64,000 nt of DNA from Sminthopsis crassicaudata (lineage: Eukaryota). Under the pieces are notes generated by a model. That model saw only the letters and a list, made by a program, of their open reading frames with translations. It ran no database searches and had not been told where the DNA came from. A program made the translations under genes and the position numbers. Below are positions 33,701 through 63,325 of this stretch, one piece after another. The DNA lies in contig NC_133617.1 in NCBI RefSeq assembly GCF_048593235.1, positions 13,211,607 to 13,275,606 on the forward strand, written 5' to 3'. Within the stretch, counting starts at the first letter, position 1. The number at the start of each line of letters is the position of its first letter.

Positions 33701-36700
33701 GCCTGCTTCCTCCGGGAGGGCTTCGTCCTGAGGTGTCTCTGTTTTGTCCCCTGGGGAAGCCGGCTGCCCCAGGACACAGCCTCCCTCCTCCCCTGTTCCT
33801 GAGGCCGCCTCAGGCCCTAGTGACCACCACCCGGGCTGGGCCTCTGCTTTATGCCATAGAGGTGTGATGGTGGAGATATTGAGGCAGGCGCCGCAGGCTG
33901 GGACCGCAGGAAGTTGCCCTGCCCTTGACGCCCTCCCTTGCACTAGCAGGTGGACCTGGTGGATGAGGCGCCCAAGGGCCCGCAGGCCTGAGTGGGTGAA
34001 GCCCACGGGCCGGGAGCCCTGGACGGGCGAGGGCCACGGGCCGGCCTCCTGCTGGCCTCAGGCTGATGCCTGCTAGGCTTCCTCCTCAGCATCACATGGA
34101 GGACATTTCCCAGAGCGCCTTGCCCCCCTTCTGTCCCCTGATCCTTGAGGTGACGCTGGGAAGGGGACGGAAGGGGAGGAAGCTTCATTTCTCTTCTGTG
34201 GCAGATACTTGTAGGAAGGCCGGCTCTGTGTCTGCCTCAGTGGCCGCCAGGGCCAGAGCCCGAGGCCAGCAGGCCCAGGACTGGCCAGGCCCGAGGGAGA
34301 ACGGATTGGGCGGAGGGACGGCCTGGACTGGGGCTCTTTCTCCCAGTGATTGCTCCGGGCCTCTGAGCTCCCTTTCCAAGGAGCGAGAGAAGCAGCCGCA
34401 GCCTCCTCCCGTCCCCAGCCGGCCCCTTCACCCCTGCTTGTCCCCCCCACTCCTGCCCAGCGTGTCCCCTCTGTGCCTGGACCCCTGAACCCCTCCTCCC
34501 TGACTCAGCCTGAAAGCTTTGCCTTCAGAGGGTCCAGGGCTTTCTTCCCTGCCCTATCCTGGGGGCCCTCACGGGCGTCTCCTGCCTCCCTCTAGCTGTG
34601 GCAGGGGGGGATCCCCGCGGGCCACCCTAGCCAGGGCTGGGGCTTCCCACTTCCCTGTGGCCCTGGGGCTCCTTCCCTGGGAAATGAGCCGATTTGCTCC
34701 GTGACCTCTGGGGAGGCCCGACGTGGGGAGAGCTGCCCCTGGGCCTCTGCGGCTGCCCGTTCTGTCTCAGCTTCTGAGCCCTGGCCTGGGCCGGCCCTGC
34801 CGGGCTCTGATCAGTGCCAGCGGAAGGTTTGGGAGGCGCCCTGGACCCGATAAGCTGCCTCCATGCTTGGGTTGGTGCCGGTAGGTCGCCCCCGGAGGAA
34901 AGGGCCGGGCCCTCGCGCTTCTGCCGAATCTCCCAGAGCAGACGCTGTCAGGGCTCTCCACAGGCTCCATGCCTGGCAGCGTCCCTCAGCGCCAGTGCCA
35001 GGGACCTGTCCTGATTGTCAGCACTTGTCCCGGGGGCTCACGCAGCTGAGGAGGATCCTGGGAGGGGCAGTGTCTGCAGGGGAAACCCAGGCTCCTGGAC
35101 GGGCAGGAAGTGGGCCAGTGGCAGGAAGAGCCCAGACTGGCGACTGGGACTCTGGGGCTGCTTGGAGCTGCCAGGACTGGGGCTCCTGCTGCGGATCCCT
35201 CCGTCAGTCCTCACCCCCTACTAAGCACCTGGGAAAGGCATCCGTGCTCAGTCTTTCCCCCAATGGCTGGTCAGGGAATCCCCACTTTGAGGGGACATAG
35301 CTGAGCTCCCGTGTCCCCCAGCTTCTCCCCCTGCCCCCAGCTCCTCACCTGTCTCTCCCCATCTTGGAACATGTGTCCTGGGAGGCTGGACCTGGGCCAT
35401 TCCAGCCTGAGGCTAACGGCTACCCGGCGCGGCTCCCCGTGGGGACCCCTGGGCTTCAGGCCTAGCTCTGACGGGACCATCTGGCGGTGTCTCTCACTCT
35501 GGCCACAGGCTCCTCGGCGGTACAAAATCACTGCTTTTCCCAGGAGGGCCGGGCTGGGCTGCGGTGGGGGGACATCTTCCCAGGCTGCTTTGGGAAAGGG
35601 CCCCGGCAGGAAATCCTCCCAGGCCCGTTCTTCTCTTCTGACAGCCGTCAGGCTCCATCTCTTCCTTGTCCCCTTGTCTGAGACGTTCCCTCTGGGGCGG
35701 GGGCGGGGGCAGGGGAGGGGCTGGGGGCTGCCGCACTTCCTTGGCGCTGGGGGTGCCTGGGCCCAGCACATTGCTCTTCAGGCCGCCCTCGTCCCACGGC
35801 TCGTGGGGCACCCGGCCTCGGGACCTCCGTGGGCTAATTGGGGCATTGGAATAGTTTGGTGTGAATGTAGGGGAGGAGGTGGGTGTTCTAGGGTGCAGGG
35901 GCTGGGCTGTGGAGACCCAGGGGGGAATGGGGGAGGAAGGGGACAAACGGATGTGCAAGATGCTGCCAGAGGGGGTGGGGGGGAATGGCTGACAATACCC
36001 TGTGGGGAATGGCGCGAAGGCTGTTCAGAAGGGCAGACTGGCAAAGGCGGAAGGTCCGGCCCAGGTGGCCTTGCTTGGCCCGACAGAGGGGGAGGCAGAG
36101 GCTAAATGACTGGCATGGGAGGCCACTGCCCAAATCGTGCCCCGGCGGCCTTGCCCAGGAATCCCTCGGGATCCGCCCTGTGGCCGAGGACGTTTCTTCC
36201 TTGTCCGAGCCTCGGCCGTGTCGCAGGCGGTCTGTTTGCTTCTGCATTTCGTTCTACGCTTCCTGGCGTTATTCCCACCTCTGCGATCGGGCTCCCAGAG
36301 TCTCCTTCCGCTCCCGTGGGCACGGAAGCCGTTCCTCTGGGCTCTCTGCGCTCTGCCTCCGCTGGGAAAAGCCTGCAGCTCTTCCCAACTGTTCTCTCCT
36401 AAGTCTCTTGTGCCAAGATAGTATCCCTTAGGGCACCTGTTCCCCACCTGAGGGCCCCGCCCCCCGAGTTTGCAGCTCTTGGTTACACAATCGATTTCCC
36501 CTCTTTAACTGAGACTTTGACAGTTAAACTGTCGGAGCAGTGGAGAGAAGCGAGCTCTGGCTTCCCAGCTGGCCCTGCAGACAAGTTCCTGTGTGACATC
36601 CACTGGTTCCCAACCGGTTTTTCAGGCCCTGGACACAGACCAGAGCCCGGGCCCCAGCAGCCTTGGGGGTGGCGGCCCTGAGGCAGGCGGGGCTGCAGGC

Positions 36701-39700
36701 CGGGCAAGGATGCCTTCACGTCTCCCCCTGCTCCCTGCTCCCCCCTCCTCTGGGCTGGGGGGCTCGCAGCTTGTGCTCTGAGGGCGCCCCGCTCTGCTCC
36801 CCTCCCTCCTCTCCCCCTCGAGCAGCAATTCTCTCTCTCCCCAGATCCGGCTGCGGTGCCAGAAGGGGATTCCGCCATCCTTGCGGGGCCGGGCCTGGCA
36901 GTACCTGTCGGGAGGGAAGGTCAAGCTCCAGCAGAATCCGGGGAAGTTTGACGTAAGGAGCGTCCCTCCCAGCCCCACTCACTCCCCCCGCCCCCAGATC
37001 CGGCTGAGCAGCCTTGGAGGCCCCCCAGCCACTTAGCGGGGAGAAGAGGCCATGCGGGTCGTTGAGGCAGAGGAACGATGGGGACAAAGGGCCGGGCAGG
37101 CCAAGGCCGGGGAGGGCACCATTGGGCAGACCTGCCAAGCGGGCTGTCATGTGCCCCCGGTGTGCCCAGGACCTCTGGGGTCTCCAACCGGGCTGATGCT
37201 CAAAGGGGTGAGGCCAGATTTGGGGCCTTCCATCCCCTCAGAGACCCTCCAGTTGGGAGGCCATGTTGGGGGAGGGGGGCCTGGCTCCCCCCGTCAGTAT
37301 TTCTTCTGGGAGGGCGAGCTGGGGGCGCTGGCTGAGAGACCCCCCACAGGGCCTCGGGGAGTTCATTCAGAGTCTCCTTGCCGGGCCCCATCTCTCCCCA
37401 TCTCCCTTTCAGGAGTTGGACCTCTCACCAGGAGACCCCAAGTGGCTGGACGTGATTGAGAGAGACCTACACCGGCAGTTCCCCTTCCACGAGATGTTTG
37501 TGTCCCGTGGGGGCCACGGGTAAGAGACCTGGGGAGACCCCGGGCTCGGGGGGGGGGGGGGTTGGGGCCTCTGGGCAGCCAGGAAGCTGGAGCCCTCTCG
37601 CTGGTCCCGCCCCTCGAGATGCACTCCTCAGACAACTGCGGCCGACCCCCCCCACACACACGGAGCTTCTTTAATTAGCCTCCCTTCAGCTGGCCCCGGG
37701 CACAGGCCAGAACTCGGGCTCCTCTGAAGGAGCAGGAGACAGGGCCCCGCTGCCAGCCTGGGCACTCAGTGCCCAGAGCCTGGGCTGTCACTCCCTCCTC
37801 CTGCTCATTTACAGATGAGGAAATGGAGCCAGACAGTGACTTGTCCAAGGTCTCACATTGAGCTCAGGCCTTCCTGGCCCAGGCCCAGTGCTCTGTCCAC
37901 TCTGGCGCCACCTGCTGCCCAGCTCTGCCCGTGGGTGGAGATCACGGATGGGGAAGTGCAGGGAGAAGGGGCCCAGAACCGGGCTGGGGGGCCCCGAGAA
38001 GAGACTTCAGCCCCCTTGGGTTCTCGCTCTCTGAGGAGGGCGTGTTCCAGGCCTTGCACAAGGCGCTTTCTCCTTCCAGCCTCCCAGCAGCCGGAGCCCG
38101 AGGTCTGTTTGCTAGTGAGTGTCGGAGGCTGGATTTGAGTGCAGGTCACTTGGGGCTCTGGGCCCGAGGGGAAAGGACTCGTCTGTGACTCCTTGGAGTG
38201 AAGAACAAGGGGCTGTGGCTCTGGGAGGCAGGGGCGCGTGCCCGGGCAGAGACTGGGGGAGCGGGGAGCTTGTGGGGCGAGCGTCGCCCCTGGACCGCGG
38301 CGTTCTGAGCTGCGGCAGCCGCTGGTTTGTGCTCTGTCCCTGAGGCTGGGACTATGCAGACGTGGGCAGGGGCTTGGGCCACACGGGCAGCCGGGGGGGG
38401 CCTGGTCTCCTTTTGTGGCAGGAGGGCCCTGCTCCGGTGCCCCAGGGCTCCAGGCTGTCCCTGGAGGGAGTGGGCCCAGGGGAGGCACAAGGGCACAGGC
38501 TTGCGCTCACACTGCAGCCAAGCCCCCCTAAGTGGCCAGTGGCCTTCCAGGGGTGCGGTGAGGACCCAGCCGAATGGGTCAAAGGGTGTGAGGGGGAGAG
38601 TCTCTGAGGTCAGGAACCCCCAGGTGGGTGGGCCGTGACTGCCCCTGGGAAAGCCCTTCCTCTGTGGGCAGGGGGCACTGGGATCCCTGGGGGTGACCTG
38701 GAGGTGACAGCTGACCCCGAAGAGCCAGTGCTGGGCCCCAGGGCCAGGCCGTTGGCGCTCTGCCCCAAGGAACGGTGCCCCTGAGCCCTGGCACTCATGC
38801 GCTTCCCCCTCTAGCCAACAGGACTTGTTCCGCGTGCTGAAGGCCTACACGCTGTACAGGCCCGAGGAGGGCTACTGCCAGGCCCAGGCGCCCGTGGCAG
38901 CCGTGCTGCTCATGCACATGCCCGCTGAGGTAGCCCCGGGTACCACAGGGGGCGGGCGTGGGGGGGGGTGCCCTGGAGGCCGAGGGCCTGACTCCTCTCT
39001 CCCTGTGGCAGCAAGCCTTCTGGTGCCTGGTGCAGATCTGCGAGAAGTACCTGCCGGGCTACTACAGCGAGAAGCTGGTGAGCCCCCGGGCCTTCCCAGG
39101 GTGGGGGTGGGGGTGGGGGAGCGATGGCTGCCTGCCACGTGTTCCCTGCCCACGTGTGTGCGGGCAGCCCCGGGCCAAGCGCTCACCCCGCCCACTCACC
39201 ACAGGAGGCCATCCAGTTGGACGGGGAGATCCTGTTCTCTCTGCTGCACAAAGTGTCCCCCGTGGCCTACAAGCACCTGAGCAAGCAGAAGATCGACCCC
39301 ATCCTGTACATGACCGAGTGGTTCATGTGCGCCTTCTCGCGCACCCTGCCCTGGAGCTCCGTGCTCCGCGTCTGGGACATGTTTTTCTGCGAAGGTACGG
39401 GCCCCCTTCCCCCCCTTGGGCTCTGCGGGAGGTGGTGATCACACCTGGAGGAGCCAGTGCCGTCCCGGGAGGAGGCCCCAGCGACGGGCAATGCCAAGGT
39501 GCCCACTCCCATCATTAGACTTGGGTTGGCTCAGGTGCAAAGGCTGCTGGGAGGGATGGCGATCACCCCCAGCCACAGGGGGACAGGAGTAGGCTCCTGG
39601 AGAGGGCTCAGAGACAGGACCCACGGCGCCAACGCTGGCTGCCTCTCTCACCCCCAAAGAGCCTCATGTGGCCAAAGGCAGCACCTTCTGTGGCAGCCGT

Positions 39701-41285
39701 AACGGGCCTCCATCCTGGTCTCCCGGAGGCTCATGGGCCCGCAGCCCTTTCTCTGGGCAACAAAGCTCCCAAAGCTCTCCCTGTGACACGGCCCCCCCCA
39801 TTATGCAGATGAGGAAACCAAGGCTCCAACGTCATCTTCTCTAAACATTTATTAAGCACCTACTATGTGCCAGGCACTGAACTAAGAGAGAGCTAAAGAG
39901 CAGAAAGTTCCCCCCTTTGCCCTTTAGGGGGAAACCAGACTCTGTCTGGGGGCTTCAGGCTCCCTTCTCTTAGATCCAGGTTGGGGGCTTGGCCAGCCTC
40001 TGGGGGGCGGCGGCTGCTAGAATGGGAAGAACATTGGGTTCGAATCCCCCCCAGCACTGGGAGATAACCTCGGAGAAACCTCTGTAAAGTGAGCTGTCCT
40101 GGGCGCCCGGGGAGCAGGAGGCCTGGGTGCCCCCTCGAGGCTCTCCCCGCTCTAAGGCCAGAATTTCAAATACTTGTGGACCTGCCTCCCCCATCTGCAC
40201 TGAGCCAAGTTCCTGCCCTTAGCCTGGCTCTGCCGAGGCCTGAGGGAAGCTACTCTGTCCCACCTCCTGGGGGAGGGAGGTCAAAAGGAGAGGGCCCAGT
40301 TGTCCTACCCTGGTCAGTGCTCACTCTGTGCCTCAGTTTCCTCTTAGGAGAACTTGGGGGGCAGTGCTTGCTTTCCCTGCTCCCTCCAGGGGCGGTCAGC
40401 CGGTCAAGTGCCCAAGAGACCCAGGGCGAGGCAAAAGCCGCCCTCGCGCGGCCTGGCCCCTGACCTCTGGTTTTCCCTGCAGGAGTCAAGATCCTCTTCC
40501 GGGTGGGCCTGGTTCTGCTGAAACACAGCCTGGGCTCCTCGGAGAAGCTGAAGACCTGCCAGGGCCAGTACGAGACCATGGAGCGGCTGCGCAGCCTGAA
40601 CCCCAAGATCATGCAGGAGACCTTCCTGGTGCAGGAGGTAAGGGGGGGGTCCTGGAGGGTGGGGAGCCAAGGGGACAGAAGGGGGCTGGGGACCAAGGAG
40701 GGTCCTGGGGGGCAGAGGGGGCTGAGGGCCTGAGGGCAGCGCCAGTCCTCCTCAGCTAGGCCTTCTGCCTCGTCTGGCCCCTGACACCAGGTGATCGAGC
40801 TGCCCGTGACCGAGCGGCAGATCGAGCGCGAGCACCTGATCCAGCTCCGGAAGTGGAAGGACACGCGGGGGGAGCTCCAGTACCAGTCGCCCCCAAGGCT
40901 GCACGGGGCGAAGGCCATCAGCGAGGCGGAGCCCGCCCCCCGAAAGGCGCTGGAGCCCTCCCCCTCCATCCGCCTGCCCCCGGGCACCCAACTGCCAGGC
41001 GCAGGCACCGAGAGCAGGCAGCAGAAACAGGCTGAGAAGGAGCATCAGAAGGCGCTGAAGGCTCAGGCCAAGCAGCAGAGGGGGCAGCAGCAGCCCCCGC
41101 CCTCGCAGGCCCTCCCAGGTCCTGGTGAGGGCCCCGCCCCAGCAGCCCCTGCCCAGGCCCCGGGCCCCAGCACTGAGCAGGTGCCCCTGGCTGCCCCGGG
41201 GCCGGAGGGTCCAGATGCCAAGGACTCACCTCATCATTCCAAGGAGAGCCTGACTTCCCAGGAGAGTGAAGACACTTACCTATAA
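12256..41285 (+). CDS. TBC1D10A: TBC1 domain family member 10A (EPI64; Rab GAP), complete, 515 aa
   Basis: join(12256-12467,32987-33086,36845-36952,37413-37519,38815-38929,39012-39077,39205-39394,40483-40637,40791-41285) = 1548 nt, all [15 protein letters not shown]...[18 protein letters not shown]; TBC motifs [13 protein letters not shown] and YCQAQAP; C-terminal PDZ ligand DTYL*. Confidence 0.97.
12606..12815. repeat. Tandem duplication, period 101 bp
   Basis: ctcactctggttctccgcactc...agctggaactcgccgcccc starts at both 12611 and 12712. Confidence 0.9.
17300..18300 (-). mobile_element. L2 LINE fragments
   Basis: Reverse tail aaaagcatttattaagcacttgctgtgtacc at about 17711 and flanking purine-rich L2-like body. 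Confidence 0.55.
20111..20260 (-). mobile_element. WSINE1-type tRNA/CORE SINE
   Basis: ctgaggctggggttaagtgacttgcccagggtcacacagctagg...ccactgcgccacctagctgtccc; degenerate 15-bp TSD agacaattctggttt (20096) / aggcaattctgtttt (20261). Confidence 0.85.
20466..20645. mobile_element. hAT/Charlie-type MITE (OC1-like), 180 bp
   Basis: TIRs CAGTGGTCCTCAAACT / AGTTTGAGAACCCCTG; 8-bp TSD-like TTCTAGAT / TTCTAGTG, fitting the Charlie NTCTAGAN target preference. Confidence 0.85.
25228..25294. repeat. Imperfect (GAGT)n microsatellite
   Basis: gtgagtgagtgagtgagtaatgagtgagtgaatg... Confidence 0.85.
32987..33086 (+). CDS. TBC1D10A: TBC1D10A exon 2 (100 nt)
   Basis: ccatag|AGTAGAG ... AAG|gtgggt; [20 protein letters not shown]...KRHKK. 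Confidence 0.95.
36845..36952 (+). CDS. TBC1D10A: TBC1D10A exon 3 (108 nt)
   Basis: cccag|ATC ... GAC|gtaagg; [24 protein letters not shown]...GKFD. Confidence 0.95.
37413..37519 (+). CDS. TBC1D10A: TBC1D10A exon 4 (107 nt)
   Basis: tttcag|GAG ... CACGG|gtaaga; [23 protein letters not shown]...GGHG. Confidence 0.95.
38815..38929 (+). CDS. TBC1D10A: TBC1D10A exon 5 (115 nt)
   Basis: ctctag|CCAACAG ... GAG|gtagcc; [11 protein letters not shown]...HMPAE. Confidence 0.93.
39012..39077 (+). CDS. TBC1D10A: TBC1D10A exon 6 (66 nt)
   Basis: ggcag|CAA ... CTG|gtgagc; [22 protein letters not shown]. Confidence 0.95.
39205..39394 (+). CDS. TBC1D10A: TBC1D10A exon 7 (190 nt)
   Basis: cacag|GAG ... 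GAAG|gtacgg; [11 protein letters not shown]...WDMFFCE. Confidence 0.95.
40483..40637 (+). CDS. TBC1D10A: TBC1D10A exon 8 (155 nt)
   Basis: ctgcag|GAGTC ... GAG|gtaagg; [15 protein letters not shown]...FLVQE. Confidence 0.95.
40791..41285 (+). CDS. TBC1D10A: TBC1D10A exon 9 coding part
   Basis: caccag|GTGATC ... TAA; [20 protein letters not shown]...[13 protein letters not shown]. Confidence 0.96.
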
Positions 41286-46791: not shown

Positions 46792-47769
46792 TAGCTGCTC
46801 CGGGTTCAGGCACTGTTCTCAAAGTCCAGTCTGGAGGCAGAACCACACAGAAACATGGGCTGGGACACAGAGAAAGGCCGAAAGGCTCGAGTTTGGATCC
46901 GGATGGACAGCGGACAGGCCCAAGGCCGGGAGCCTCCCTCTGGTCCCCGGGGGTTTCAGCGGTTTTCTCATAGCCTCCCTTACTTAGGCTGTTCTTGGCA
47001 GAAATAGCAGCGGGGTTTGCGCTTCCTTCTCCAGCTCACTTTTTTAAACAGACGAGGAACCGAAGCAATAAGGGGGATGTGGCTTGTCCAGTTCACACAG
47101 CTAGTGTCTGAGGCTGCATTTGAACTCGGGTCTCCCTGGCTCCCGGCCCAGTGCCCTATCCACTGCTCCACCCAGCTGCCCCAAAATACAGACAAATGTC
47201 TTAAGGCAAATTTCCTCCCCCCAAACCTGGTGCTCACCGCCTGGTCGCTGCTTTGAAGCAGGAGTTTGCCAATTTTGAGGGTTATGAAGTCCATTTTTCA
47301 GATGAGAAAACTGAAGGGTGGGAGCTGGTAAGGGATTTCCTGGCTTCTGGACCACACTTTCGGGGTCAGGTCTTCCACAGTCCTGCAATGGCCACGTTTC
47401 CATATGGGAGGGGGTACGGGAGAAGAGAGGCTTCCAGAGCAGGGGGTGGTCCCAGAAGCTCAGAACTGGAAGGCCCACTGGGGAGGACCCCAGGAGTCAC
47501 CCTAACCTCTCCTGAAGGGCTGCAGGTGAAACGCGCCCGGGGCCAACACCTCAGAGGCCCAGCTGAACGGATCCATGAGGATTTTTGCCAGGGAGACTCA
47601 TTCATTTACTCCTCAGTATCCGGTGCCTCCCCTTTCCCTTGGACATTCGAGCTCCCGTCAGCCTGGGCCTCCACCTCATTCCCAGCTCCTGCCCTCCACT
47701 GAAGAGGAAGGAGCATCCCATCCCGGCTGCCCCGCTGGGGGAGGGGGCTTCTTTGGCGTTTGCCACCTA

Positions 47770-48480: not shown

Positions 48481-48849
48481 CTGGTTGACTTATTTATTGG
48501 GGAAAGGGCATCTGCTCGCCCGGATGCGAGGAGGGGAGAGAGGACCAAAGATGGAGAGACTTCTCCTCTCTCCCCTCCCCCAAGGCCAGGTCCAAGGCCA
48601 GTCGGGATGCTCGGGGAGGGTGTAAATAGAGGGGGAGGGTATTTCCCAGCCTCGAGGGTCCCGCGTGCGCCTGGGCCAATGGGAGCCCGGCCTTCTAGAG
48701 CGGGGAGGGGGACCGGCGGAATGCACTTGTCCAGTCCCCTCTCCTTCCATCCACCGGGGCTGAGCGGGCCTGGGGGCGTGGCCCTGGGAAGTTTTAGCCC
48801 CTCCCCCTCCCCGACCATCCTCTCCCAGCTTTCCAGGACGCTGCGGTTC

Positions 48850-50050
48850 TTCTGGCCCAAGAAGATTTTCGGGCGCCTCTCCCTGTTCCCATGTAGCCCC
48901 CAAGGCCCGGGTCGCGTTGCGCCGTAGCGGCCGTGTGGGAACTCGAACCCAGGCCCCCGGGCGCGGGGCCGACCTCGCTTCCTGCGCTCCCCCATCTCCC
49001 CGCCATCCCCGGCCCCAGCCATGGACCACAAGATCCTTGAAGTCCAGAGGTTCCTGGAGGACGGCTCTTTTCCGGACCACTTGGTGACCGCTTCCCAGAA
49101 GCGAGAGTTCCGCAGGCGGGCCCAGAACTTCGTCCTGGAAGGTGAGGGGGGGGCGGCTGCGGATTATCCGCTCCCAGCGTCCTGGGGCTCCCGACCACCC
49201 GATCCCGGTGGGGGCTCCCTGAGGGCGCGCAGGAGCGGAGCCTGAGACTCGGAAGTCGAGCCCAGCCGGCCATGGAAGGAGAGAAAAATTGGGTGGGGGT
49301 GGGGGGCAGCAGCCGCTGGGCTGGCCTGGCTGCAAGCTAGAATGTGTGAAAGGCATCCGTGCGTAGGCGGCCTCGCCTGGAGGCAGCTCGTGAAGGCTGC
49401 GCGAGGCCCAGCGGGCTCTCTGACCCTAAAAACAGTGGGAGCCACGGCAGGTTCTAGAGGGAGGGGAACGCTCTGACTCGGGTTTTGGACTTAAGCGTGG
49501 AGGCGGCGAGGGGCCGCCTGGAGGCCCGAGGGCAGACTGGTCTCCCCGCCCCCTTCCGGAAGGGTGGCGGGCGTCTCCGCTGGCTAAAGTTCGGGCCGAA
49601 CCCCGAGGGAGCGAGCGGCGGGGCCCGCGGCCCGGCCTCGTTTCCAGCCCGAATCTCCGGAAGTGCGCGAGGCCCGGAGCTAGCGCCGGCCCGCCCCCGC
49701 CTCGGCCTGGCTGCTGGAAGTGACCTCAGCGGTCTCCTGGGCCCGCCCGCCCCGCCCCCTCCATTAACGCTGCGCCTCGGGGCGAGGGGGCGGCGCGGGC
49801 GCGTCTGGGGTGGGATCCTCGCGCCGCGCTTCCCGCGGCTCCTGGGGCCGCGGGGCCTGCGCTCCGGCCCCTCCCCCCGCCCGGGTCCCACAACTCTCCC
49901 GTGGAGGTTCCTGGAGCGCGTGTCGCCCCTCCCCCCGGGCGCGGCACCGTGGGCTGGGGGGGAGGGGGGGAGGAGCAGGCTTCTGGGGCCGGGATCCGAG
50001 GGCAGTTTGAAAGTGTCCCGACCCCGCCGTCGTTTTCTGAGTCCCCCAAG
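48850..50050 (+). promoter_or_regulatory. CpG island over the first coding exon and intron 1 of the integrase-like gene
   Basis: CpG-dense; Kozak ccagccATGG at 49021; ETS CCGGAAGT at 49657; palindromic CTTCCGGAAG at 49553; GC boxes near 49690. Confidence 0.7.
49021..49141 (+). CDS. GIN-like gene coding exon 1 (121 nt, phase 1)
   Basis: ATG ... GAAG|gtgagg; MDHKILEVQRFLEDGSFPDHLVTASQKREFRRRAQNFVLE. Confidence 0.8.
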
Positions 50051-53000
50051 CCCCCCCGGCAGCCAGCTCCGGACAGTTGTAGCTCCCTGGTTGGATGGCA
50101 GTGGGGGCTCCCGCTCTCAGTTCTTAGATCCTGGAGTGGTGGGATGGGGGGAGGGAGGGACGTGTGAGACGCACAGACGCACCCAGTGGGAGGGGCTGCT
50201 GGGATAGGCTGGCTGGGAGCCCCCTCACTTTGCCTTCATCCTCTCAGTTGCTCCACTTCTGTGTTCCAGAAAGCAGAAGAGGACCCTCCCCCCGGTCCGG
50301 CTCTTCCCCCCCTCCTCACCCCCCCTCGTCCGGCTCTACCCCCTCCCCCAGCCTGCTCCTCTCCCCGGGGCCTCGTGTCCCCCCTCCCCCTCTGCTCCCC
50401 CTCATTTTCTCCTTTTGGGACTCTCTCCTAATAGAATCACTCCAATTCCGTGCTGCTCCTTCCCTTCCAAGCTAGCCTCCCCCCCATGGGGACTATGGGA
50501 GAAAATCCCTCTCCGCAGGCCGGGAGGGGGGCACTCGGGGCCTGAGTTTTCCCTCTCCGCCGCACTGTAACCGCACCCAAGTTGTTGTGAAGATGGAGCC
50601 GGTACCCTAGGCTGGGAGAAGGCCTTTGGGGGTGCCAGTCCCCCATCCATGTGTCCCCTGGCCGAGGCCGGACCCTCCAGAGGGGGAGCGGCCCCCTCCT
50701 CCTCCCTCCCTCTGCTCTGAGGGTGAGATAAGAATTAAACAGCAGGCCTGGGCGGGCCCAGCATTTCCCCGTCCAAGGAAACTGAGGCTCAGAGAGGTGG
50801 GGAAGGGGCTTGGCTAAGTCCCAGGGTTTACATCCAGGGTCCCTGACTCCAAACCAGCCCCACTCCCGTTCCCTCCCCCTCCTCTCGGTCCCGGCCCTCA
50901 CCTGCTCCCTGGATGCTGGATCTGCCCTGATTACTCGGCCTTCTTCCCATGTCTCCTCCCTGGCAGCCACAAGCTCCCAGGAAAACTCCAGCCTGCCCCA
51001 TTAATCTCCATTCTGGCCGTCTGGCTTTCTGGTCTACCACTCGATTGCTCCCCGTGTGTTTATTGAATTAAGTTAAATTAATATACATTAATAAATAGTG
51101 AATAACTAATTAATATTAAGTTAAGTACAATCTCTGCCTATATCCCTCGCTGAAGGGACTCTACAGAGGGGGGGGGGCAAAGTCCCATGTCCAGGAGTAA
51201 CATAACCCACAGAGGCTGGAATGGAGCTCCCCATCCCTCTCCCCTCTGACTGATGGCAGCTAGGGGGCGCCATACTGCGTGGAGCCCAGGATTGGGAATC
51301 AAAACCTACTCTGATCAATCAGACATTTAGGGACCCAGCCCAGGAGGTCACTTCACTCTCTTTGCCTCCGTGTTCTCATCTGTAAAATGGGCGGAAGAAG
51401 GAATTGTAAATCCAGTCCAGTGTCTTTGTCAGAAACACTCTCCCCGATCTAACGATTTTGCTCGATTCCCGGGACTGGTTTCCCGTAGAACTGAGGGCTC
51501 CCGTGGCGGGAGGTACAGAGCGACCCGGAGACCTAGAGGAACCTTTCAGAGCAGTTAGCATAAGCAAAGTCGCGCTAACGACTGTCCGAGGTGACGTCGG
51601 ACAGGGGCCGTGTTCGGACTCTCGGCTCCACAGCCGGCTTTCTCTCTTTCTTTCTTTCTTTTTTTAAAGCTTTTTATTTTCAAAACATGGGCAGATGATT
51701 TTTCAGCTGCCCTTGCAGAGCTGCATGCCCCTAGTTTTCCCCTCCTTCCCCCACCCCCTCCCCCGGATGGCAGGTAGTCCCATACGTCCAGCACGTGTTA
51801 CCCATTTAGGCAGTTATCTTGTCCAGTATTCTTCCCAGCACACCGGGGTGGGGCCATTAGGCACCCCTTTGCCTGCATGGATGGGGGAGCTCACCCTGGC
51901 TGCCTCCCCCTCAGACTGGGCTCTCCTTCCCCAGGGGAGGGTCTGGAATTGTTCCCTGGGGGGGTTCCTTCCCCAGGGGAGGGTCTGAGTCACCCTTTTG
52001 GGGAGGGTTTCCCCCCAGGGGAGGAGGGTTGGGGTCAGTGTCTTGGGGGGAGGGGCTCCTTCAGTAACCAAGGCATCTCCTCTGCAGACCACAACCTGAT
52101 GTTCGTCCGTCTGGGCAAGAAGTCTCTGGTGGTGCTGGACCGGAAGGACCGCCTGGAGCTGGTGAAGCAGGCGCACGTCACCTCCTCCGGCCTGCATTGC
52201 TCCCTGCAGGAAACCAGGAAGAAGGTCTCCTTCAGCTACTACTGGCCCAGCCTGGACCGAGATGTCAGCAAGTGGGTCAGTGGAGGAGGGTCCCGGGCGG
52301 GGCAGGGGGCGGCTCCCGGAAAGGAGAGACCCCGAGAACCTCGGACTCCTGCGCGCTTGTCTTCCTGCAGGAAGCCTCAGTTTACTCATCTCTAGAATGG
52401 GAGGCGTTAAGTCTTTCACTCATTCTCTGCTTTTCTGCGCTCATCTCTGCCTGGAGAGCCTCTTGGCCAGTGAGCTTTCCCTTGTGGGAACAGGAACAAA
52501 ATCCAGGCGGGATCCTCCTCCCTGCTGGGCCCGTACTTGGTCATTATTATTCCTCGGGGGTCGCTCCCCGTTCTGCCCATTAGCTGTGCACTCCCTCCTT
52601 TCCCAGGGTTGGGAAAATTGAATGAGATCATACTTGTTAAAAGGACTTATTGCCACAATGTCCAGCACACAGTAGGCACTTAATAAATGCTTACTCCCTT
52701 CCGTTATAATCGTTGCAAATGCAGCTTCCGGTTCTCTTTCCTTCCTTCACATAAGTCTACCTGAGATTCTTCTCGAGCCTTTGCTCACTACTTTTTGTGA
52801 TTTGCTCAGCCAGTCCCCAGACCACGGGCACCTGGCTTTGTTTCCAGGCTTCCCCAGGTCAGCTCTGAATGTTTTGGTATAAATGGGGTCTTTTTTGACT
52901 TCTAGGGGTTCATACAAACAATTTTTTACAGAAGGGGAAAACTGAGGTTCAGGAGAAGAGACTTGTTCAAACTCGGCATCACTGGGGGTCTAGGGAGGGA

Positions 53001-56000
53001 GCTTCTCCATCCCTCCACACTGCTTCATGGGGGCTTCCTCCTTGGGCCCATCTCAGGGATTGAGGGTGAGGTGGGTGGGGGCAGACCTTAGGGCGTTCTC
53101 TTGGAGGCTCTTCGCCCTTTTTTGTGCCTGGTAAAGATCCCAGCGGGTCCCGGCTGCTTGGGATCCCAGCGTGGCAACCCCCACAGTCTCACCCCTCTCG
53201 CCACAGGTCAAGCAGTGTAACTGCCGCCAGAAGGCGTGTTCAGAGAAGTCTCTGCCCATCCAGGTAACGGTCCCAGGGGGGCGGGGGACAGGAAGGCAGG
53301 GCGGCCCCGCTGCCACGGTGGGCTTCTGGCTGGCTGGTCCTCCTGGACTCCCCCCAAAGAAAGAGAGAATCTTGATCTTGGGGACAGAATCTGAGCTTGA
53401 CGGTCTTGCTCCGTGGGACCTTGGCCAGATCCCTTGTCCATTCCCCAAATGAGAGGCGGCGGGTGGGCCCTAACCCTAAGAGACGGTAGCTGGATGTCTT
53501 GCCCCCTGGGGATCCTGCCCTGAGGGGTCTGGGATGGATGGGCACATGGACGGTCCTCTTCTCCACAGGGGGTCAGCAGCAAGAGCCAGCGCGCTAGGGA
53601 CCCGTTGCCCGTGCTCCAAGTGGAAGCGGTAAGTAGGTGGGGACGGGGAGGAGAGGCGAGAAGGACCCGGCTCTGAGCCGGGCACGCCACAGATAGTGTC
53701 TCCTTTGGGCTCCTCAGCACCCTGGGAGGGGATCTGTCACGATCCCCATTTTAGTTAAGGAACATTGCACAACTAGTGAGTGTCGGAGTCTGCATTTGAA
53801 CTTGGGTGGCCTTGGTTCCAGGGCTAGTGCTCGATCAGCCAGTGGCTCAGGCTCTGCCCTTATACAGCGTGAGCCCGGAGACCTGCCTCCTACCCTTTCC
53901 CAGAGGGGCTTTGGAACACTCGGGCCTGGGGAAGTGCATGGGAGCCGCTGTCGGCCATCTTCCCCTCCTCGCTCCCCCGTCCCGGTCCAGGATTTTAGGC
54001 CCTCTGGGTGACTTTTTATAAGTCTCCCGACCTCTTCCCCTCAGGTCACTCAGGCTTTTGAGCAGGTGGGCCTGGGCCTGGTGGGGCCCCTGATGGAGAC
54101 TGCCAACGGCTTCCGCTTCATCCTTTTGTCCGTGGACGCTTACTCCCGGTGGGTCGAAGCCTCACCACTAAAGGAACAAAATCCCGTGGAAGTGGCCAGC
54201 GCCCTGATCCCCTTCCTCCTCCGATTTGGACGTCCCCAGCTCCTGGTCACCACTCTTCGAGTTCCATTTGTGAGCCAGGTGAGTCAGCTATCCGCCCCCC
54301 CCTCCCATCCAGAGCAGGCTGGGTTCTCCCCCTTGTAATCTAGAACAGGATCCCCACCCCCTTCTAGAATTGGAGTTCTGCCCCCTCCCTGCTCTAGAAC
54401 AGAAAGGCTAGGCTGAGGGAGGGGGGGCCAGGCTGAGGGAGGGGGGCCAGGCTGAGGGGGGGGGCTAGGCTGAGAGAAGGAGGCCAGGCTAAGCGGGGGG
54501 GGGGGGGGGGGGTAGGGCTGAGCTCCTCCTGTTCTTGCCTTCTGAAACTCACGTGGTTCCCCCACAGTGCCCCTGGGGTCAGCCTCAGATCATTTCCCTT
54601 CCTGCCCCCTTAAGCCCTCTAGTCTCCATGGCTCCCCACACCCTCCCCTGCAACCCGCCATCTCTCCTTCCACGGCCACCTTTCCAGACCCTCAAGGCTC
54701 CTTTTCAGTGACCCCTGTCCCCTGCAGGTGAACCGGAGTCTCCATCGCCAGCTCCAGGGCTTGGGGGTGCCCCTTGGCAAGCTGGACATCATCGTGTCGG
54801 CGTTCCAGCCGAAGATCAATAGCATCGTGTCCCTGACCGCCAGCTCTGTTAGGAGGTGAGGACGGGCCGGCCCCGGTCTCTGGTCTCACCGGACCTGCTG
54901 CCCACAGAGAAGCCGGGGAGAGCGAGGAAGAGAGCTGGTCCTTATCAGCTCTGGGGGAACCCAATCCCAAGTGGTAGAGCTGGATTGGAACCCAGACCCC
55001 CTTATGGTTAGAGGGGCTAGGGGTGGAGAAAAAGGGAGAATCTGAGAAAACGGGGGTGGCGAGGTGATGGCCGAGGCTGAGCTTGACAAAACCTGTCCTG
55101 GGCTTCGGGGTGTGGCGCGGGATGGCACTCAGGGGGATTGGCACGGTCGGGTGAGAAGAGCCCTGCACTGGGGACCAGAAGGCTGAAGTTAAAATCCTAA
55201 TCCTGCCCTCCACTGGCTGGGAGAAGAAGCATAGAAATCCCTTCGGATGCCTCAGTTTCTTTATCTGTAAAATGGGTAGGGGAGGGGGCTGTTACTGAGC
55301 TGAAGGTATCCTGACTTGGGATGATTTAGGAAATTGAGGATGTGGTGGGGGAGAGGGTCCGTTCCCGCGGCCCTAACTAAGAGAGCTCCTGGCTGCTTTC
55401 AGGGCCCTGTGGAGCCTGGTGAAGGGGGAGCTGGAGAAGTGGGACCAGGTCTTGGACAGAGCCCTTTTCTCCCTGAGGACGGCCGTGACTAAGAACAAGA
55501 GGAAAAGTCCCTTCCAGTTACTTTATGGTCGCAAGCCCAGGGCCCCTCAGGACGTTCCCTCCTATTTTGACGTGAGTGCTGGGCTCCTGGCTCCTCGGCG
55601 CATTCTACGCTGCAGGCCGCCTCTCCTGGCTGGGTCTCCCGGGTCCCGCTGCGCCGAGAGCTGCTTCCTCTCCTTGACCGCTGGTTCTCTCGCCTGCCGT
55701 TAGCCTTTCCTTCTCCTGACCCTGACCCCCAACTCTGGGGCCCCTCCAAAAGGATTCACACCCAGAGCATTAGGATTTGAGCATCTGGGACCCAGAGCAG
55801 GTTACTTGAGACCCACGCCACCCAAATGCCCTTTGTGGGCCGGGGGCAGCAGCCTGGCCTGGGTTCTCATCTCCTCGTGCCTTGGCTTGAGCCAGCTCCC
55901 TTCGGTCAGCTCCCATTCATAAGTATGAGGAGGGGGCTCCCTGCCCTGGCCTTTCTCCTTCCTTTACTTTGCAGCATTTTCTGGAGTTCAGATAAACATG

Positions 56001-57281
56001 GAGGGTTAGCAGGAGGGGCATTGGGCCGGAGCTTAGAATACCTGGGTTCCCGAAGGATTCTCTGTAGAACTGGTGGCCAGTGACTATCTATAGTTACCAT
56101 GACCCCCTCCCCTCTGTGACCTTCTCTCCTCCGTGTACCTCCAGGTGGTTGCAGCAGACACCGTGGGGGACAGTGCAGGGGCTACCCATGGTGATAAAAG
56201 GCCCATGGGTGCAGCATCTGCACCAAAAGCCGTGGGGCAGCAACCGAAGCGACAGATCATCCGAGAGCCCACTCTACAGGTCATGGCGAAGCCCGGTGTG
56301 AAGCCGGTCCAGCAGCCCGTGCCAGAGCCCATCCAGCAGCCCGTGCCAGAGCCCATCCAGCAGACCGTGCCGGAGCCCGCCCAGCAGCCTTTAATGAAGT
56401 CCATCCAGCAGCCCATGCCGGAGCCCGTGTTGGAGCCCTCTCAGCAGCCCTTAATGGAGCCTGCCCAGCAGCCCTTAATGGAGTCCATCCAGCAGCCCAT
56501 GCCAGAGCTCACCCAGCAGCCCATGCCGGAGCTCACCCAGCAACCCATGCCGGAGCTCGTCCTGCAGCCCGTGCCGGAGTCCTCCCAGCAGTTTGTGTTG
56601 GAGCCCTCCCAGCAGCCCATGCTGGAGCCCTCTCAGCAGTTCGTGTTGGAGCCCTCCCAGCAGTCCATATCAGAATCCAGACAACCATCCAGGCCAGAGA
56701 CCATGGGGCAGTTCATGCATCAGCTCATACCAGAGCCCATGAATCAGCATATGTGGCAGCCCATGCTGGGGGCCATCAACCAATCTATGCAGCCCATCCA
56801 GCAGCTCATGCAGCAGACCATGCAACAGTCCATGATCCAGTCTCTCCAGCAGCCCATGCATCAGCCCATTCAGCAGCTCATACTTCAGCCCATGCAGCAG
56901 CCCATGATGGAGTCCATCCAGCAACCCCTGCAGCAGCCCCTGCACCAGTCTATGCAGCAGCCCATGCTGCAATCCATGCAGCAGCCTATCCAGCAGGCCA
57001 TGCCCCAGCCCATCCAGCAGCCCATGCAGCAGGCCATGCCCCCACCCATCCAACGGCCCATACCCCAGTCTGTGCCGTGGCCCATGGCCCAGCCTATCCA
57101 GCAGCCCCTGCAGCAGCTCATCCTGGCAAAACCTATGCATCCACCCATCCCCAGGCTGGCAGAATGTCCTGTGGTGAGCGGCTGGGACCAACGGACAACT
57201 CCCAGCCTCGACAACCCCTGGGAAAAGTGGGAGCCTGGTGGAGGAGCCTTCTGGACTCAATGGAGGGAGCCTGGCAACTAG
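49021..57281 (+). CDS. Domesticated GIN/Ginger (Gypsy-integrase-like) gene with dead DDE core and Q/P/M-rich repeat tail, 677 aa
   Basis: join(49021-49141,52088-52275,53207-53263,54045-54278,54728-54855,55403-55571,56145-57281) = 2034 nt, six GT-AG introns with matching phases and no internal stop. Integrase hallmarks: H-x6-H...YYWPSLDRDVSKWVKQC; GPL..T.NG.RFILLSVDAYSRWVEASPL; RFGRPQ; WDQVLDRALFSLRT...SPFQLLYGRKPR. Confidence 0.88.
52088..52275 (+). CDS. GIN-like gene coding exon 2 (188 nt; HH half of the Zn finger)
   Basis: ctgcag|ACCAC ... TGG|gtcagt; DHNLMFVRLGKKSLVVLDRKDRLELVKQAHVTSSGLHCSLQETRKKVSFSYYWPSLDRDVSKW. Confidence 0.88.
53207..53263 (+). CDS. GIN-like gene coding exon 3 (57 nt; CC half of the Zn finger)
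   Basis: ccacag|GTCAAG ... CAG|gtaacg; VKQCNCRQKACSEKSLPIQ. Confidence 0.8.
54045..54278 (+). CDS. GIN-like gene coding exon 4 (234 nt; core N-half)
   Basis: ccctcag|GTCACT ... CAG|gtgagt; VTQAFEQVGLGLVGPLMETANGFRFILLSVDAYSRWVEASPL...PFVSQ. Confidence 0.9.
54728..54855 (+). CDS. GIN-like gene coding exon 5 (128 nt, phase 2)
   Basis: ctgcag|GTGAAC ... AGGAG|gtgagg; VNRSLHRQLQGLG...VSAFQPKINSIVSLTASSVR. Confidence 0.82.
55403..55571 (+). CDS. GIN-like gene coding exon 6 (169 nt)
   Basis: ctttcag|GGCCCTG ... GAC|gtgagt; ALWSLVKGELEKWDQVLDRALFSLRTAVTKNKRKSPFQLLYGRKPRAPQDVPSYFD. Confidence 0.9.
56145..57281 (+). CDS. GIN-like gene terminal exon (378 aa; QQP[MVL]xE / QQPM repeats)
   Basis: Pyrimidine tract plus ctccag|GTGGTT, in phase 0 with exon 6; 1137 nt open to TAG (ORF track 56133-57281). 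Confidence 0.8.
   Translation: MVAADTVGDSAGATHGDKRPMGAASAPKAVGQQPKRQIIREPTLQVMAKPGVKPVQQPVPEPIQQPVPEPIQQTVPEPAQQPLMKSIQQPMPEPVLEPSQQPLMEPAQQPLMESIQQPMPELTQQPMPELTQQPMPELVLQPVPESSQQFVLEPSQQPMLEPSQQFVLEPSQQSISESRQPSRPETMGQFMHQLIPEPMNQHMWQPMLGAINQSMQPIQQLMQQTMQQSMIQSLQQPMHQPIQQLILQPMQQPMMESIQQPLQQPLHQSMQQPMLQSMQQPIQQAMPQPIQQPMQQAMPPPIQRPIPQSVPWPMAQPIQQPLQQLILAKPMHPPIPRLAECPVVSGWDQRTTPSLDNPWEKWEPGGGAFWTQWREPGN
56304..57122 (+). repeat. Coding tandem repeat, 24-nt then 12-nt units (CAGCAGCCCATG core)
   Basis: ccagcagccc(a/g)tgcc(a/g)gagc repeated; unit lengths are multiples of 3. Confidence 0.9.
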
Positions 57282-57689: not shown

Positions 57690-58290
57690 GACAGATAGAC
57701 GGGGGTTCCCAAAAGTCTTAGTGCAGCTTTAACCTATTACAACTTTTTAAGATTTTTGGGACACTCTGAAGAAAATTGATTGATAAGAGGGTGGTTGGAT
57801 GTAGCAGGGAAGGAAGAAAGTGAGAGTCGAGACTTCTGGGAAAACAACGCGTGTGAAGTAAAGGGTTTTCTAGGCAGGGTCAAAGACTGTTATGTGGACC
57901 TGGGGCGCTGGGTATGTCCGGACCAACAAGAAAACGAGTTTGGGGCTGGAAAGGTGGTTAGATCCAAGTTGAGGTAATGGGGAGCTGTGGAAGTTGCTGG
58001 AGTAATAGCAGCTACTCAGATCAATAAATAATTGGGAGGAGGAAAGCTCTCCTATGGGAGATGGTACCTAGGGCAAGTCTTGAAAAGGTGGGAGTGAATT
58101 TGGAAGTTCTAAGCAGGCTAGGTAGGGCCTGTGCAAAGACTGCAGCAAGCATCCAATTCGGGGAGAAGTACGGAGCCAGTTGTTTGGCTGGAAGAGAGGG
58201 TTTGGGCAAAGGATGCAAAAAGGGGAAAGAGGGGGTGAGTTGCAGAGAGCAGCAGAGACCTAGTCCATCACTGCTGATTATCACATGATC
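57690..58290 (-). mobile_element. L2 ORF2 relic
   Basis: Purine-rich + strand typical of antisense L2; degenerate - strand ORF at 58021-58302. Confidence 0.45.
58023..58028 (+). terminator. Candidate poly(A) signal for the GIN-like gene
   Basis: First AATAAA I found downstream of the 57281 stop; lies in repeat-like sequence. Confidence 0.3.
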
Positions 58291-60779: not shown

Positions 60780-61720
60780 GCGGGGGAGGGCGGGGCCCAG
60801 AGAGCCGAGGGGGCGGGCCCGCGGATCCCGGATCCAGGCGGCGGGGCGAGCGGAGCCGGGGCCCGGACGGGGCCGTTCGCGGGGTTCGAGGGAGCCAGCG
60901 CGGGAGCCCCCGGCCGCGCCGTCTGCGGCCCGAATCTCCCCAGCCTGGGCGTGGCCGGTCCAACGAGCCCAGAGCGACCCCCGCGGGACCCCTGCGCGCC
61001 CCTGCAGGCTCCCGGCCGGCCTCCCAGGGTTCCCGGACGTCGCTTTGCGTGGCTGGAACCCGGGCACCCGGTACACGCGTGGGGCCCGCCTCCTCCCCCC
61101 TAGCCTCTCCCCCCCCCATTCCAGAAGGGCCAGCCAGCGGGGGCGTGGCCCGGAGAGTGTGGCTCGAGGATTGGCTGGCCCCGAGGGTTCTGAGGGGGCG
61201 GGGCCAGTGCCGGGGAGTTTCAGGGGGCGTGGCGTGGGCCCGGGCGCTCCGAGGGGGCGGGCCGGGAGCTCCTGCAGCCGCCGCCGTCGCCGCCGCCGCA
61301 GCCGGAGGAGGAGGATCCGGGGCCTGGCGCTGGCTGGGCGGCTGTGGGGCCCGGCAGCAGCAGCCGCCGCCGCCTCGGCGGCCCCTCGCTCCTCCTCCTC
61401 CTCCTCCTCGGAGCGGCCTCCTCCCTGCCCGGGCCTCGGGCTCGGCGCGCCCATGGAGCTGCACATCCTGGAGCACCGGGTCCGGGTGCTGAGCATCGCG
61501 CGCCCCGGACTCTGGCTCTACACGCACCCGCTTGTCAAGCTGCTCTTCCTGCGGCAGCGGAGCCGGTAAGGCGAAGGCCGGGGGCGCGGGGGCCTGCCCG
61601 CCCCCGGGCCCCTCCCTGCCGGGGCTGGGGGGGGGGCAGAGAAGCCCGTCCCCCCGCCCTCCAGCCCTCTGTCTCCGCTGCTCCCCGAGCCCGCTCCGCA
61701 CCCCGGATCATCCCCACTTT
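60780..61720 (+). promoter_or_regulatory. CpG-island promoter of CASTOR1
   Basis: CpG-dense; ATTGG at 61170; several GGGGCGG/GGGGCGTGG boxes at 61140-61263; GCC-repeat 5' UTR; Kozak gcccATGG. Confidence 0.85.
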
Positions 61721-62418
61721 CCAGAAGGGGCCACTGAGATTCCGGGAGGTTGTAACGACTTGCCCAGAGACGCCCAGAAAGTGAACGGGGGCCTCGCGCT
61801 CCCCTCCCCCAGCTTGCTGGGGCTTGCCCCGCTCCGAGACTGCTATATTAACGGGGAGGTGTCGCCGCCCTCCGCTTTCTAGCCGCCCTGGCCCAGCCCG
61901 AGCCGTGACTCCCCCCCCCCCCCCCAACCTCAGTTGCCTCTTTGGAACACGAGCCCTTCCGATCCCGCGGGAGCTTGGAGCCGCAGCTCTCTGTGGGTCA
62001 GTGGGTCAGAGGGCCGGTACCAGCAGGGGTCACCCGAGCCAGCTCCGGGAGAATGCTGGGGAGGTGGCTCCTTCCTCCCAGCGAGGAGGAAAGGACTGGG
62101 CTGGGTGGCTGCTTCCCCAAGCTGGGATTCTGGGAAGGCTCAGGATCACCTGCACCCATCTTCCCCTTCCTCCTCCTCCCTCCCCACGGGCCGAGGCTCC
62201 GGGAGACCTAATTTGTTCTGCTTGACTGCAGCCTGAGCAAAGTCCACTGGCTCCTTAAGTCTGGCTCATCCTCCCCTCCCCCCCCCCCCCCGGACTTTGG
62301 GATGGGGGGATGAGGCTTTGGCTCATGGAGGGGTCCCCTCTCCCCAGGTGCAAGTTTTTCAGCCTGACAGAAACCCCAGAAGATTACACCCTAATGCTGG
62401 ATGAAGAAGGATATAAAG
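61453..62418 (+). CDS. CASTOR1: Cytosolic arginine sensor for mTORC1 subunit 1 (GATSL3), exons 1-2; remainder beyond the window
   Basis: join(61453-61565,62348-62418): MELHILEHRVRVLSIARPGLWLYTHPLVKLLFLRQRSR|CKFFSLTETPEDYTLMLDEEGYK; donors gtaagg and gtactg; synteny with TBC1D10A and SF3A1. Confidence 0.96.
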
Positions 62419-63325
62419 GTACTGGCTTCTGGTCTCTACTGTCTCCTCTCCTCAACCCCCCTCCCCCCCAGGGATGCCCCTTGACTGCCCATGTGGGCCA
62501 GGCGTCTGCCCTCCTCAGGATGGGGGGGGCCTGGGGCAAGAGCAAAGGATGGAGGCAGCGAAATGACCCCCAGCTGCCCCAGCCTAGAGCAGAACCCCCC
62601 CCAAGAGGGACCGAGCCTCCCAGGAGAGGCTGGGGGAGAGTCCTGCTGAGGACGTTCTGGGGCGGCCTCGCGGAGGCTCTTTGGGCTGTGGACCCCGGTT
62701 CTGCTGCTCCGTGTGGCTGTGTGATATTGGCCAAGTCACTTCCTTTTCCAAGATTGCGGTTTCCTTTGGGGTAAAATACTAATAGCACATATTTTTAGAT
62801 AACTTGAAGGAATTCAAGGCCCTTTGGACTAGAAGAGCTGCCCGCTGCACTCCACATCCTCGAGGAGGGAGCAGAATGACTGCCCCCCCCCTCAGGGTGA
62901 TAGTGGGATTTCCTGAAATCAGGAATCAGCTGAGGGCCTAGGATCTGGGTGGGGGTGGGGTAGATGGGAGTCAGCAGGTGATTGAGACAAATGGAGAAGC
63001 TGTTCTGAGTCTGGACCCCAGGTGTTGCTGCATGAGTGTCGGTGAGCCGGGTCTCGGAGCTAGAAGCCGCCTGCCTTCGGTCCCCTTTCTATTTCCTGTT
63101 GTGGCTCAGATTCGGGGCCTGGTGCCTGGGGATGCCAAGCTTCTGCCGAGCTCACCTTCTGCACAGAGGACTCGGCCGGGAGCAGGCCCCGGGCACCCTG
63201 GCTCGGGTCCCAGACACTGGCCGGGAATATGCGCCCTCTAAGGAACTTAGGCTCTACCCGGTGGGGGGTGTAGTACATAACAATAGTGATCAAAATGGAC
63301 ATTCACATAGCTCTTTAAAGTTGGC

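Follow-up and report, generated by a model that had tools for sequence, protein, structure and literature searches.

A multi-exon marsupial gene encoding a protein of predicted integrase fold without the catalytic triad, likely of Ginger1 origin

The window, a stretch of 64,000 nucleotides from Sminthopsis crassicaudata, contains a gene of eight coding exons on the + strand (49021-57281), with GT-AG borders at 7/7 introns and a spliced open reading frame of 697 amino acids, whose product is a 100% match to a database protein labelled as an uncharacterized S. crassicaudata protein (P0003). Coding exon 1 (49021..49141, + as all features named here) holds the ATG and a YPYY-like N-terminal extension (residues 1-40), and its phase-1 intron site is common to GIN1 and GIN2. 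Coding exon 2 (52088..52275) encodes the integrase zinc-binding domain with H70 (52174) and H77 (52195) and has a phase-0 intron site that is also common to GIN1 and GIN2; family PF17921 is matched by the open frame of this exon (E 1.4e-9) and by the whole protein (E 2.1e-11, 44.2 bits, cut-off 25.5). The finger is continued in coding exon 3 (53207..53263), where C107 and C109 form a CxC in place of CxxC, and is followed by a low-confidence linker of 60 bp, coding exon 4 (53569..53628). Core strands and helices with G153 (54075), D173 (54135) and T212 (54252) are encoded by coding exon 5 (54045..54278), which has a further phase-0 intron site common to GIN1 and GIN2. Coding exon 6 (54728..54855) carries D240 (54785), the helix bearing S255 (54830) and the basic residues R262/R263, and coding exon 7 (55403..55571) the WD..L and SPF.LLYGR.P motifs and a predicted dimer helix (278-289). 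The last one, coding exon 8 (56145..57281), encodes a variable Q/P/M-rich repeat region (residues 321-655), a Trp-rich stretch of 21 C-terminal residues (57216..57278) and the stop. The initial annotation of this DNA had recorded the loss of the triad but had missed the introns, the altered zinc-finger cysteine and the absence, by sequence, of a GPY/F C-terminal domain.

A CpG-rich region that is likely to be the promoter (48500..49999; GC 0.66-0.78 and CpG observed/expected 0.61-0.83 in three 500-bp bins) spans the first coding exon, and the first candidate polyadenylation signal after the stop, AATAAA, is at 58023..58028, a second one being at 59528. The upstream neighbour is a RabGAP-TBC gene (at least 32820..41285; PF00566, E 1.2e-8), presumably TBC1D10A-like, and downstream lie the first exons of a CASTOR gene (61477..62420; PF18700, E 1e-6 and 1.4e-12) that we take to be CASTOR1-like. 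An exon-like open reading frame segment (HRLVAALKQEFANFEGYEVHFSDEKTEGWELVRDFL...) was also noted at 47205-47702 on the + strand, in the interval that separates the integrase gene from the TBC gene. In searches of its own genome the gene has a single intact locus. It is unlike an endogenous retrovirus or LTR element, in which an intronless pol with reverse transcriptase and RNase H upstream is expected: here there are seven GT-AG introns and the ATG directly precedes the integrase part.

All three catalytic positions of the core are substituted, as had been claimed from the raw sequence: the codons at 54075 (GGC), 54252 (ACT) and 54830 (TCC) encode G, T and S in the reading frame of the gene. 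The residue numbers first given to them (133, 192 and 235) are 20 too low, since the 60-bp exon 53569-53628 was likely overlooked; the spliced frame gives G153, T212 and S255, and likewise the acids first called D153 and D220 are D173 and D240. In a HMMER alignment to a foamy-virus integrase (E 1.5e-8) G153 stands at the D of FFIDYIGP, T212 at the D of IHSDQG and S255 at the E of KVER. Among 144 aligned relatives (hits spanning most of the domain, minus 26 listed isoforms or near-copies, plus six genes of the own genome) 132 have D at the first of these columns, 124 have D at the second and 127 have E at the third; the whole triad is kept in 115 and fully lost in 3. The fold motifs were rightly described as kept, the anchors G156, G204, W276 and P299 matching 136-142 of the 144. 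The same loss, as G/T/S or G/T/A, is found in all five marsupial genera sampled, and because four other genera carry it the substitutions are due to neither chance nor assembly error. In terms of the active DDE integrases and transposases, the protein has G153/T212/S255 where these have D, D and E, whereas the RNase H-like core fold is present in the predicted model.

This model, obtained with AF2 for residues 1-320, has a mean pLDDT of 88.9 and only residues 113-131 fall below 50. G153 lies inside the strand 149-155, T212 just after the strand 208-211 and S255 inside the helix 248-269. The overlay on an integrase core that the initial annotation had proposed as a check bears out the fold: foamy-virus integrases are the best Foldseek matches (E 6e-16) and the best VIA match is the PFV integrase core (Z 18.5, rmsd 2.7 A over 157 residues). 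Foamy-virus and Ty3 integrases are the closest solved folds at about 18-21% identity, but unlike them the window gene has introns and lacks both the catalytic acids and a gag, reverse transcriptase and RNase H context. A homodimer is also predicted, with a score of 0.63 as opposed to 0.00 for the best of 3 controls, contacts that agree to at least 76% between runs and a partner pLDDT of at least 76. Among solved pairs 21/30 microbial and 17/29 eukaryotic ones reached the mark, whereas of the single chains 0/23 and 0/30, respectively, did so. The predicted contacts (residues 197-207 and 278-289) match those of the usual integrase core dimer, and since integrase dimers have already been solved, the pass may reflect the predictor's memory of these structures. 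The interface residues are invariant at 35/39 positions and the others at 107/134, an apparent but small difference.

Both the N-terminal domain and the core are basic (pI 9.7 and 10.7, respectively), the core having 23 K/R and 12 D/E. All five orthologues retain R262 and R/K263, which align with a basic pair of PFV integrase. The H2C2 zinc-binding domain precedes the core and its last Cys is shifted by one: this column is Cys in 142/144 relatives and has lost it in 4/5 orthologues, and the Cys one place before is invariant in the orthologues. Integrases bind DNA by means of a GPY/F C-terminal domain; neither this domain nor an OTU/Ulp1 domain was found by sequence or Pfam, and the Q/P repeats come directly after the core. 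Residues 1-45 align with the YPYY region of GIN2 and relatives (motif as defined in the text of PMC2836005), with F-P..F kept and the other aromatic residues changed. In the ESM Atlas the N-terminal part matched generic integrase clusters only and the Trp-rich tail gave no usable match. We also considered the tail as a decayed PHD finger, but its match to the PHD of a paralogue is weak and not significant (E 0.95).

Orthologues were found in Sarcophilus, Antechinus, Notamacropus, Petaurus and Monodelphis. In the four full-length ones the core (141-312) is identical at 170, 157, 157 and 145 of 172 positions (84-99%) and the last 21 residues at 20-21 of 21, while the Q/P region differs between them in both length and sequence, with 41-81% of the aligned sites identical. 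No orthologue outside marsupials was found among 1.84 billion protein representatives, where the next matches beyond three marsupial clusters are just 25-37% identical, and a word-index search yielded one weak retroelement match besides six marsupial proteins; the search covered protein representatives and the own genome, so absence outside marsupials is not proven. Candidates from turtle (P0020) and from fish and frog (P0017/P0019) were rejected as orthologues; they form a separate clade and keep most of the acids.

Further evidence comes from a spliced retrocopy in the same genome (G000) at C6:149.239-149.240 Mb (L043:5435-6169), which is intronless, contains stops, crosses five exon junctions and is 67% identical. 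It keeps G/T/S, so the loss of the triad is older than the retrocopy. Of the 137 core sites at which the five orthologues all agree, it differs at 51, and this internal contrast argues that the live gene is constrained. As the retrocopy is heritable, the spliced mRNA was presumably once present in germ cells or early embryos; the gene would thus be, or have been, expressed there, the present-day support being the database gene model. Among the sequencing runs listed as containing the sequence none is recorded as RNA, which counts neither for nor against expression. A second decayed copy at C2:276.437-276.438 Mb (L072:5182-5910, minus) consists of the final exon with about 280 bases of 3' flanking sequence, and being a single exon it is uninformative on splicing. 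The proposal that selection kept a non-catalytic integrase scaffold is upheld by the intact predicted fold, the loss common to the orthologues and the lack of any other acid that would fill the site. That the dead core and the tail hardly vary suggests specific binding partners.

What could such a protein do? DDE enzymes bind their catalytic metals through the acids of the triad, and as these acids are lost the protein would neither cut nor join DNA. Two copies of it are predicted to pair core-to-core, and the basic N-terminal and core domains may bind DNA, chromatin or RNA. The Q/P-rich region, which stands in place of the C-terminal domain, could be a flexible linker or an activation-like region, and the last 21 residues could bind a partner, in which case the dimer would present two Trp-rich tails on flexible Q/P linkers. 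We see about an even chance that the protein works as a non-cutting homodimer, a scaffold that would probably contact nucleic acid and bring in a host partner via its conserved tail. A different function is conceivable, in which the dead core just dimerises the Trp-rich tail, possibly in germ-cell cytoplasm, and binds no nucleic acid at all. Binding may indeed be lost, since no GPY/F domain is seen and the spacing of the zinc finger is altered, and it fits with this function that the tail is as conserved as the core and that Imagin, an integrase-derived protein discussed below, is described as cytosolic in oocytes (PMC12863088). However, the strongly basic core and the basic pair retained in every orthologue speak for contact with nucleic acid, and we consider a purely protein-binding role unlikely, even if it is the best of the other functions.

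The origin of the gene is best approached through its relatives in the same genome. A gene at C1:534.011-534.028 Mb (L040, L041) has D/D/E intact and a GPY/F-like C-terminal exon; we take it to be GIN1, judging from its sequence. For the stretch that leads from its first exon to the second His, where an exon is expected, none was recovered at C1:534 Mb, and this copy of GIN1 may lack part of the zinc finger. A GIN2 gene, which has E/S/E at the triad and a frame that stays open through the six exons modelled, is at C1:33.703-33.711 Mb (L066, L067), between genes that presumably are ABCB9-like and OGFOD2-like, and family PF10500 (ARL6IP4) was matched there. GIN2 is reported to lie between ABCB9 and OGFOD2 (PMC3424704). 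Given that separate genes hold both of these places, the window gene was rejected as an orthologue of either GIN1 or GIN2. Three intron sites with their phases (alignment columns 47, phase 1, and 118 and 268, phase 0) are nevertheless common to all three genes. Ginger1 transposases combine YPYY, H2C2 and DDE domains, have introns and in some cases carry a PHD finger; GIN1 and GIN2, with three introns in common, derive from them (PMC2836005), and we infer that these introns are the three sites, as far as the available text of that paper describes them. The shared sites make an origin of the window gene from a Ginger1/GIN DNA transposon likely, and the order of a YPYY-like region, H2C2 and core and the presence of introns are likewise those of the Ginger1/GIN transposases (PMC2836005). 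In contrast to these, the window gene lacks the triad, GPY/F and an OTU/Ulp1 domain, and it has one intact locus and orthologous proteins in five genera. GIN1 has the same domain order (PMC2836005), but differs in its D, D, E, its C-terminal exon and its place. GIN2, a Ginger1-derived vertebrate gene, is similar in having eight coding exons, a degenerate triad and the three intron sites (PMC3424704, PMC2836005), and differs in having acids at two of the three positions and two other core introns.

Three more intron-containing dead-integrase paralogues are found on a chromosome other than that of the window gene, at C6:255.67-255.71 Mb (L011, L012, L014), with Q/T/E, Q/T/E and Q/T/R at the triad; the model of paralogue B is without one linker exon and the later core exons. 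Their cluster is flanked by an oxysterol-binding-protein gene and a CARS1-like gene, presumably the OSBPL5-CARS1 interval, which we take to border the imprinted KCNQ1 domain in placentals. The trio ends in a PHD-like finger (PF00628, E 0.001, below the cut-off, in the wombat orthologue), a domain also found in Ginger1 transposases, and has two further exact intron sites in common with the window gene. Between paralogues B and C we noticed a tandem array of about 4 kb with long open frames and a repeat unit of about 15 residues (L013:3376-7366).

In the trees, which contained no labelled Ginger1 transposase, the window genes form a clade (100/100), as does the C6 trio (100/100). The two are grouped with dead-integrase zinc-finger proteins of brachiopods and molluscs (93/87 with 57 rows, 92/93 with 33 rows), although the node is unstarred and the branches are long, and the grouping may be long-branch attraction. 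The window gene falls among GIN1, GIN2 and GIN-like proteins and apart from 4-6 outgroup integrases (97/95), with weak inner support. A domestication separate from that of GIN2 is favoured by the introns, while the tree does not fix the origin. As regards origin only, the gene could instead be an ancient, fast-evolving duplicate of GIN2, which lies on the same chromosome about 20 Mb away, is triad-degenerate in this species too and can be joined with it in a clade that is not rejected (p-AU 0.34). Nevertheless, two core introns of GIN2 are absent from the window gene, the two exact intron sites and the T at the second position are shared with the C6 trio and not with GIN2, and the best trees place it with that trio (the 92/93 node, unstarred and with long branches), so we regard a duplication as rather unlikely. 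If the domestication was indeed separate, a bolder and more doubtful proposal would be a marsupial-only family of four dead Ginger1 integrases, the third GIN domestication in vertebrates, with three members bearing a PHD finger at OSBPL5-CARS1 and the window gene bearing a Q/P activation-like region and an invariant Trp tail; the four would regulate chromatin as dimers, in the germline or in early embryos.

It is useful to compare the gene to Imagin of malacostracan crustaceans, which by analogy is the closest functional precedent. Imagin is described as a multi-exon host gene derived from Ginger1 that has kept YPYY, H2C2 and the core with its fold, has lost the catalytic triad, is conserved and is linked to gonads (PMC12863088). 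The comparison is by description only, and there are differences: Imagin belongs to another phylum and its locus is in an MMUT intron, which argues that the two were likely domesticated independently, and it is single-copy, as opposed to the window gene with its three paralogues, Q/P-rich region and Trp-rich tail (PMC12863088). The triad of GIN2 has been reported as degenerate as well (PMC3424704), and with these precedents a domesticated integrase that has lost catalysis is no surprise in itself.

The initial annotation also suggested a dominant-negative or restriction factor. It would poison the multimers of retroviral or transposon integrases, and such a role has also been proposed for GIN1, GIN2 and CGIN1 (PMC3575427). 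In its favour, the protein retains the fold and the predicted dimer surface, retrovirus-like integrase loci are numerous in the genome, and the retrocopies imply expression in the germline or early embryo. But the core is only 25-36% identical to 30/30 compared retrovirus-like integrase loci of its own genome, the 28 near-full matches share 9-12 of 27-29 interface positions, and no active Ginger1 relative was found in the own genome among the best candidates scored. The low identity, together with a core that evolves slowly and is not diversifying, weakens the idea, which is poorly supported so far and seems to us quite improbable; the Imagin authors raise the same argument against such a role (PMC12863088). 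Of the earlier interpretation, the non-catalytic scaffold under selection thus stands and the restriction role is so far not supported, and it had not identified the likely origin and the precedents. A residual enzyme with D173 and D240 as a rearranged active site is very improbable. Both are invariant in five orthologues and alternative acids were suggested for GIN2 (PMC3424704), but the D173 column is D in 106/115 relatives with intact triad, which marks it as structural, and in the predicted model it ends strand 2, not strand 1, D240 sits in a lineage-specific loop with an acid in 0/115 of these relatives, and the core has no acidic residue within 192-239 or 241-271. Judging from the alignment, no other acid fills the vacated active site.

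A marsupial inventory lists only 10 domesticated genes derived from retroelements and names GIN1/2, SCAND3, KRBA2 and NYNRIN as integrase-derived, and in its accessible part none of the 10 fits the window gene or its three paralogues (PMC3670739). We found no published description of these four genes in the article texts searched. The gene is a further example of an integrase that has been retained although its catalysis is entirely lost, and it lets the role of a GIN-type protein be probed without residual activity; small dasyurids are laboratory animals.

A few other integrase-related sequences deserve mention. At C2:514.925-514.928 Mb (L042:2940-5954) there is a pol-derived open reading frame of 1005 amino acids with degenerate RNase H and integrase motifs, presumably NYNRIN-like. 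In Bombina (P0019/P0173) and Gopherus (P0183/P0185) the annotation joins GIN-like integrase domains to metabolic enzymes (PPCDC; nicotinate-nucleotide pyrophosphorylase), and these are either real fusions or gene-model artefacts. Finally, a degenerate integrase core is combined with repeated H2C2 modules in large proteins of Lingula (P0009, which also carries a C2H2 zinc-finger array) and Sinanodonta (P0036) and in two further entries (P0067 and P0077), which together may represent another family domesticated from Ginger1.
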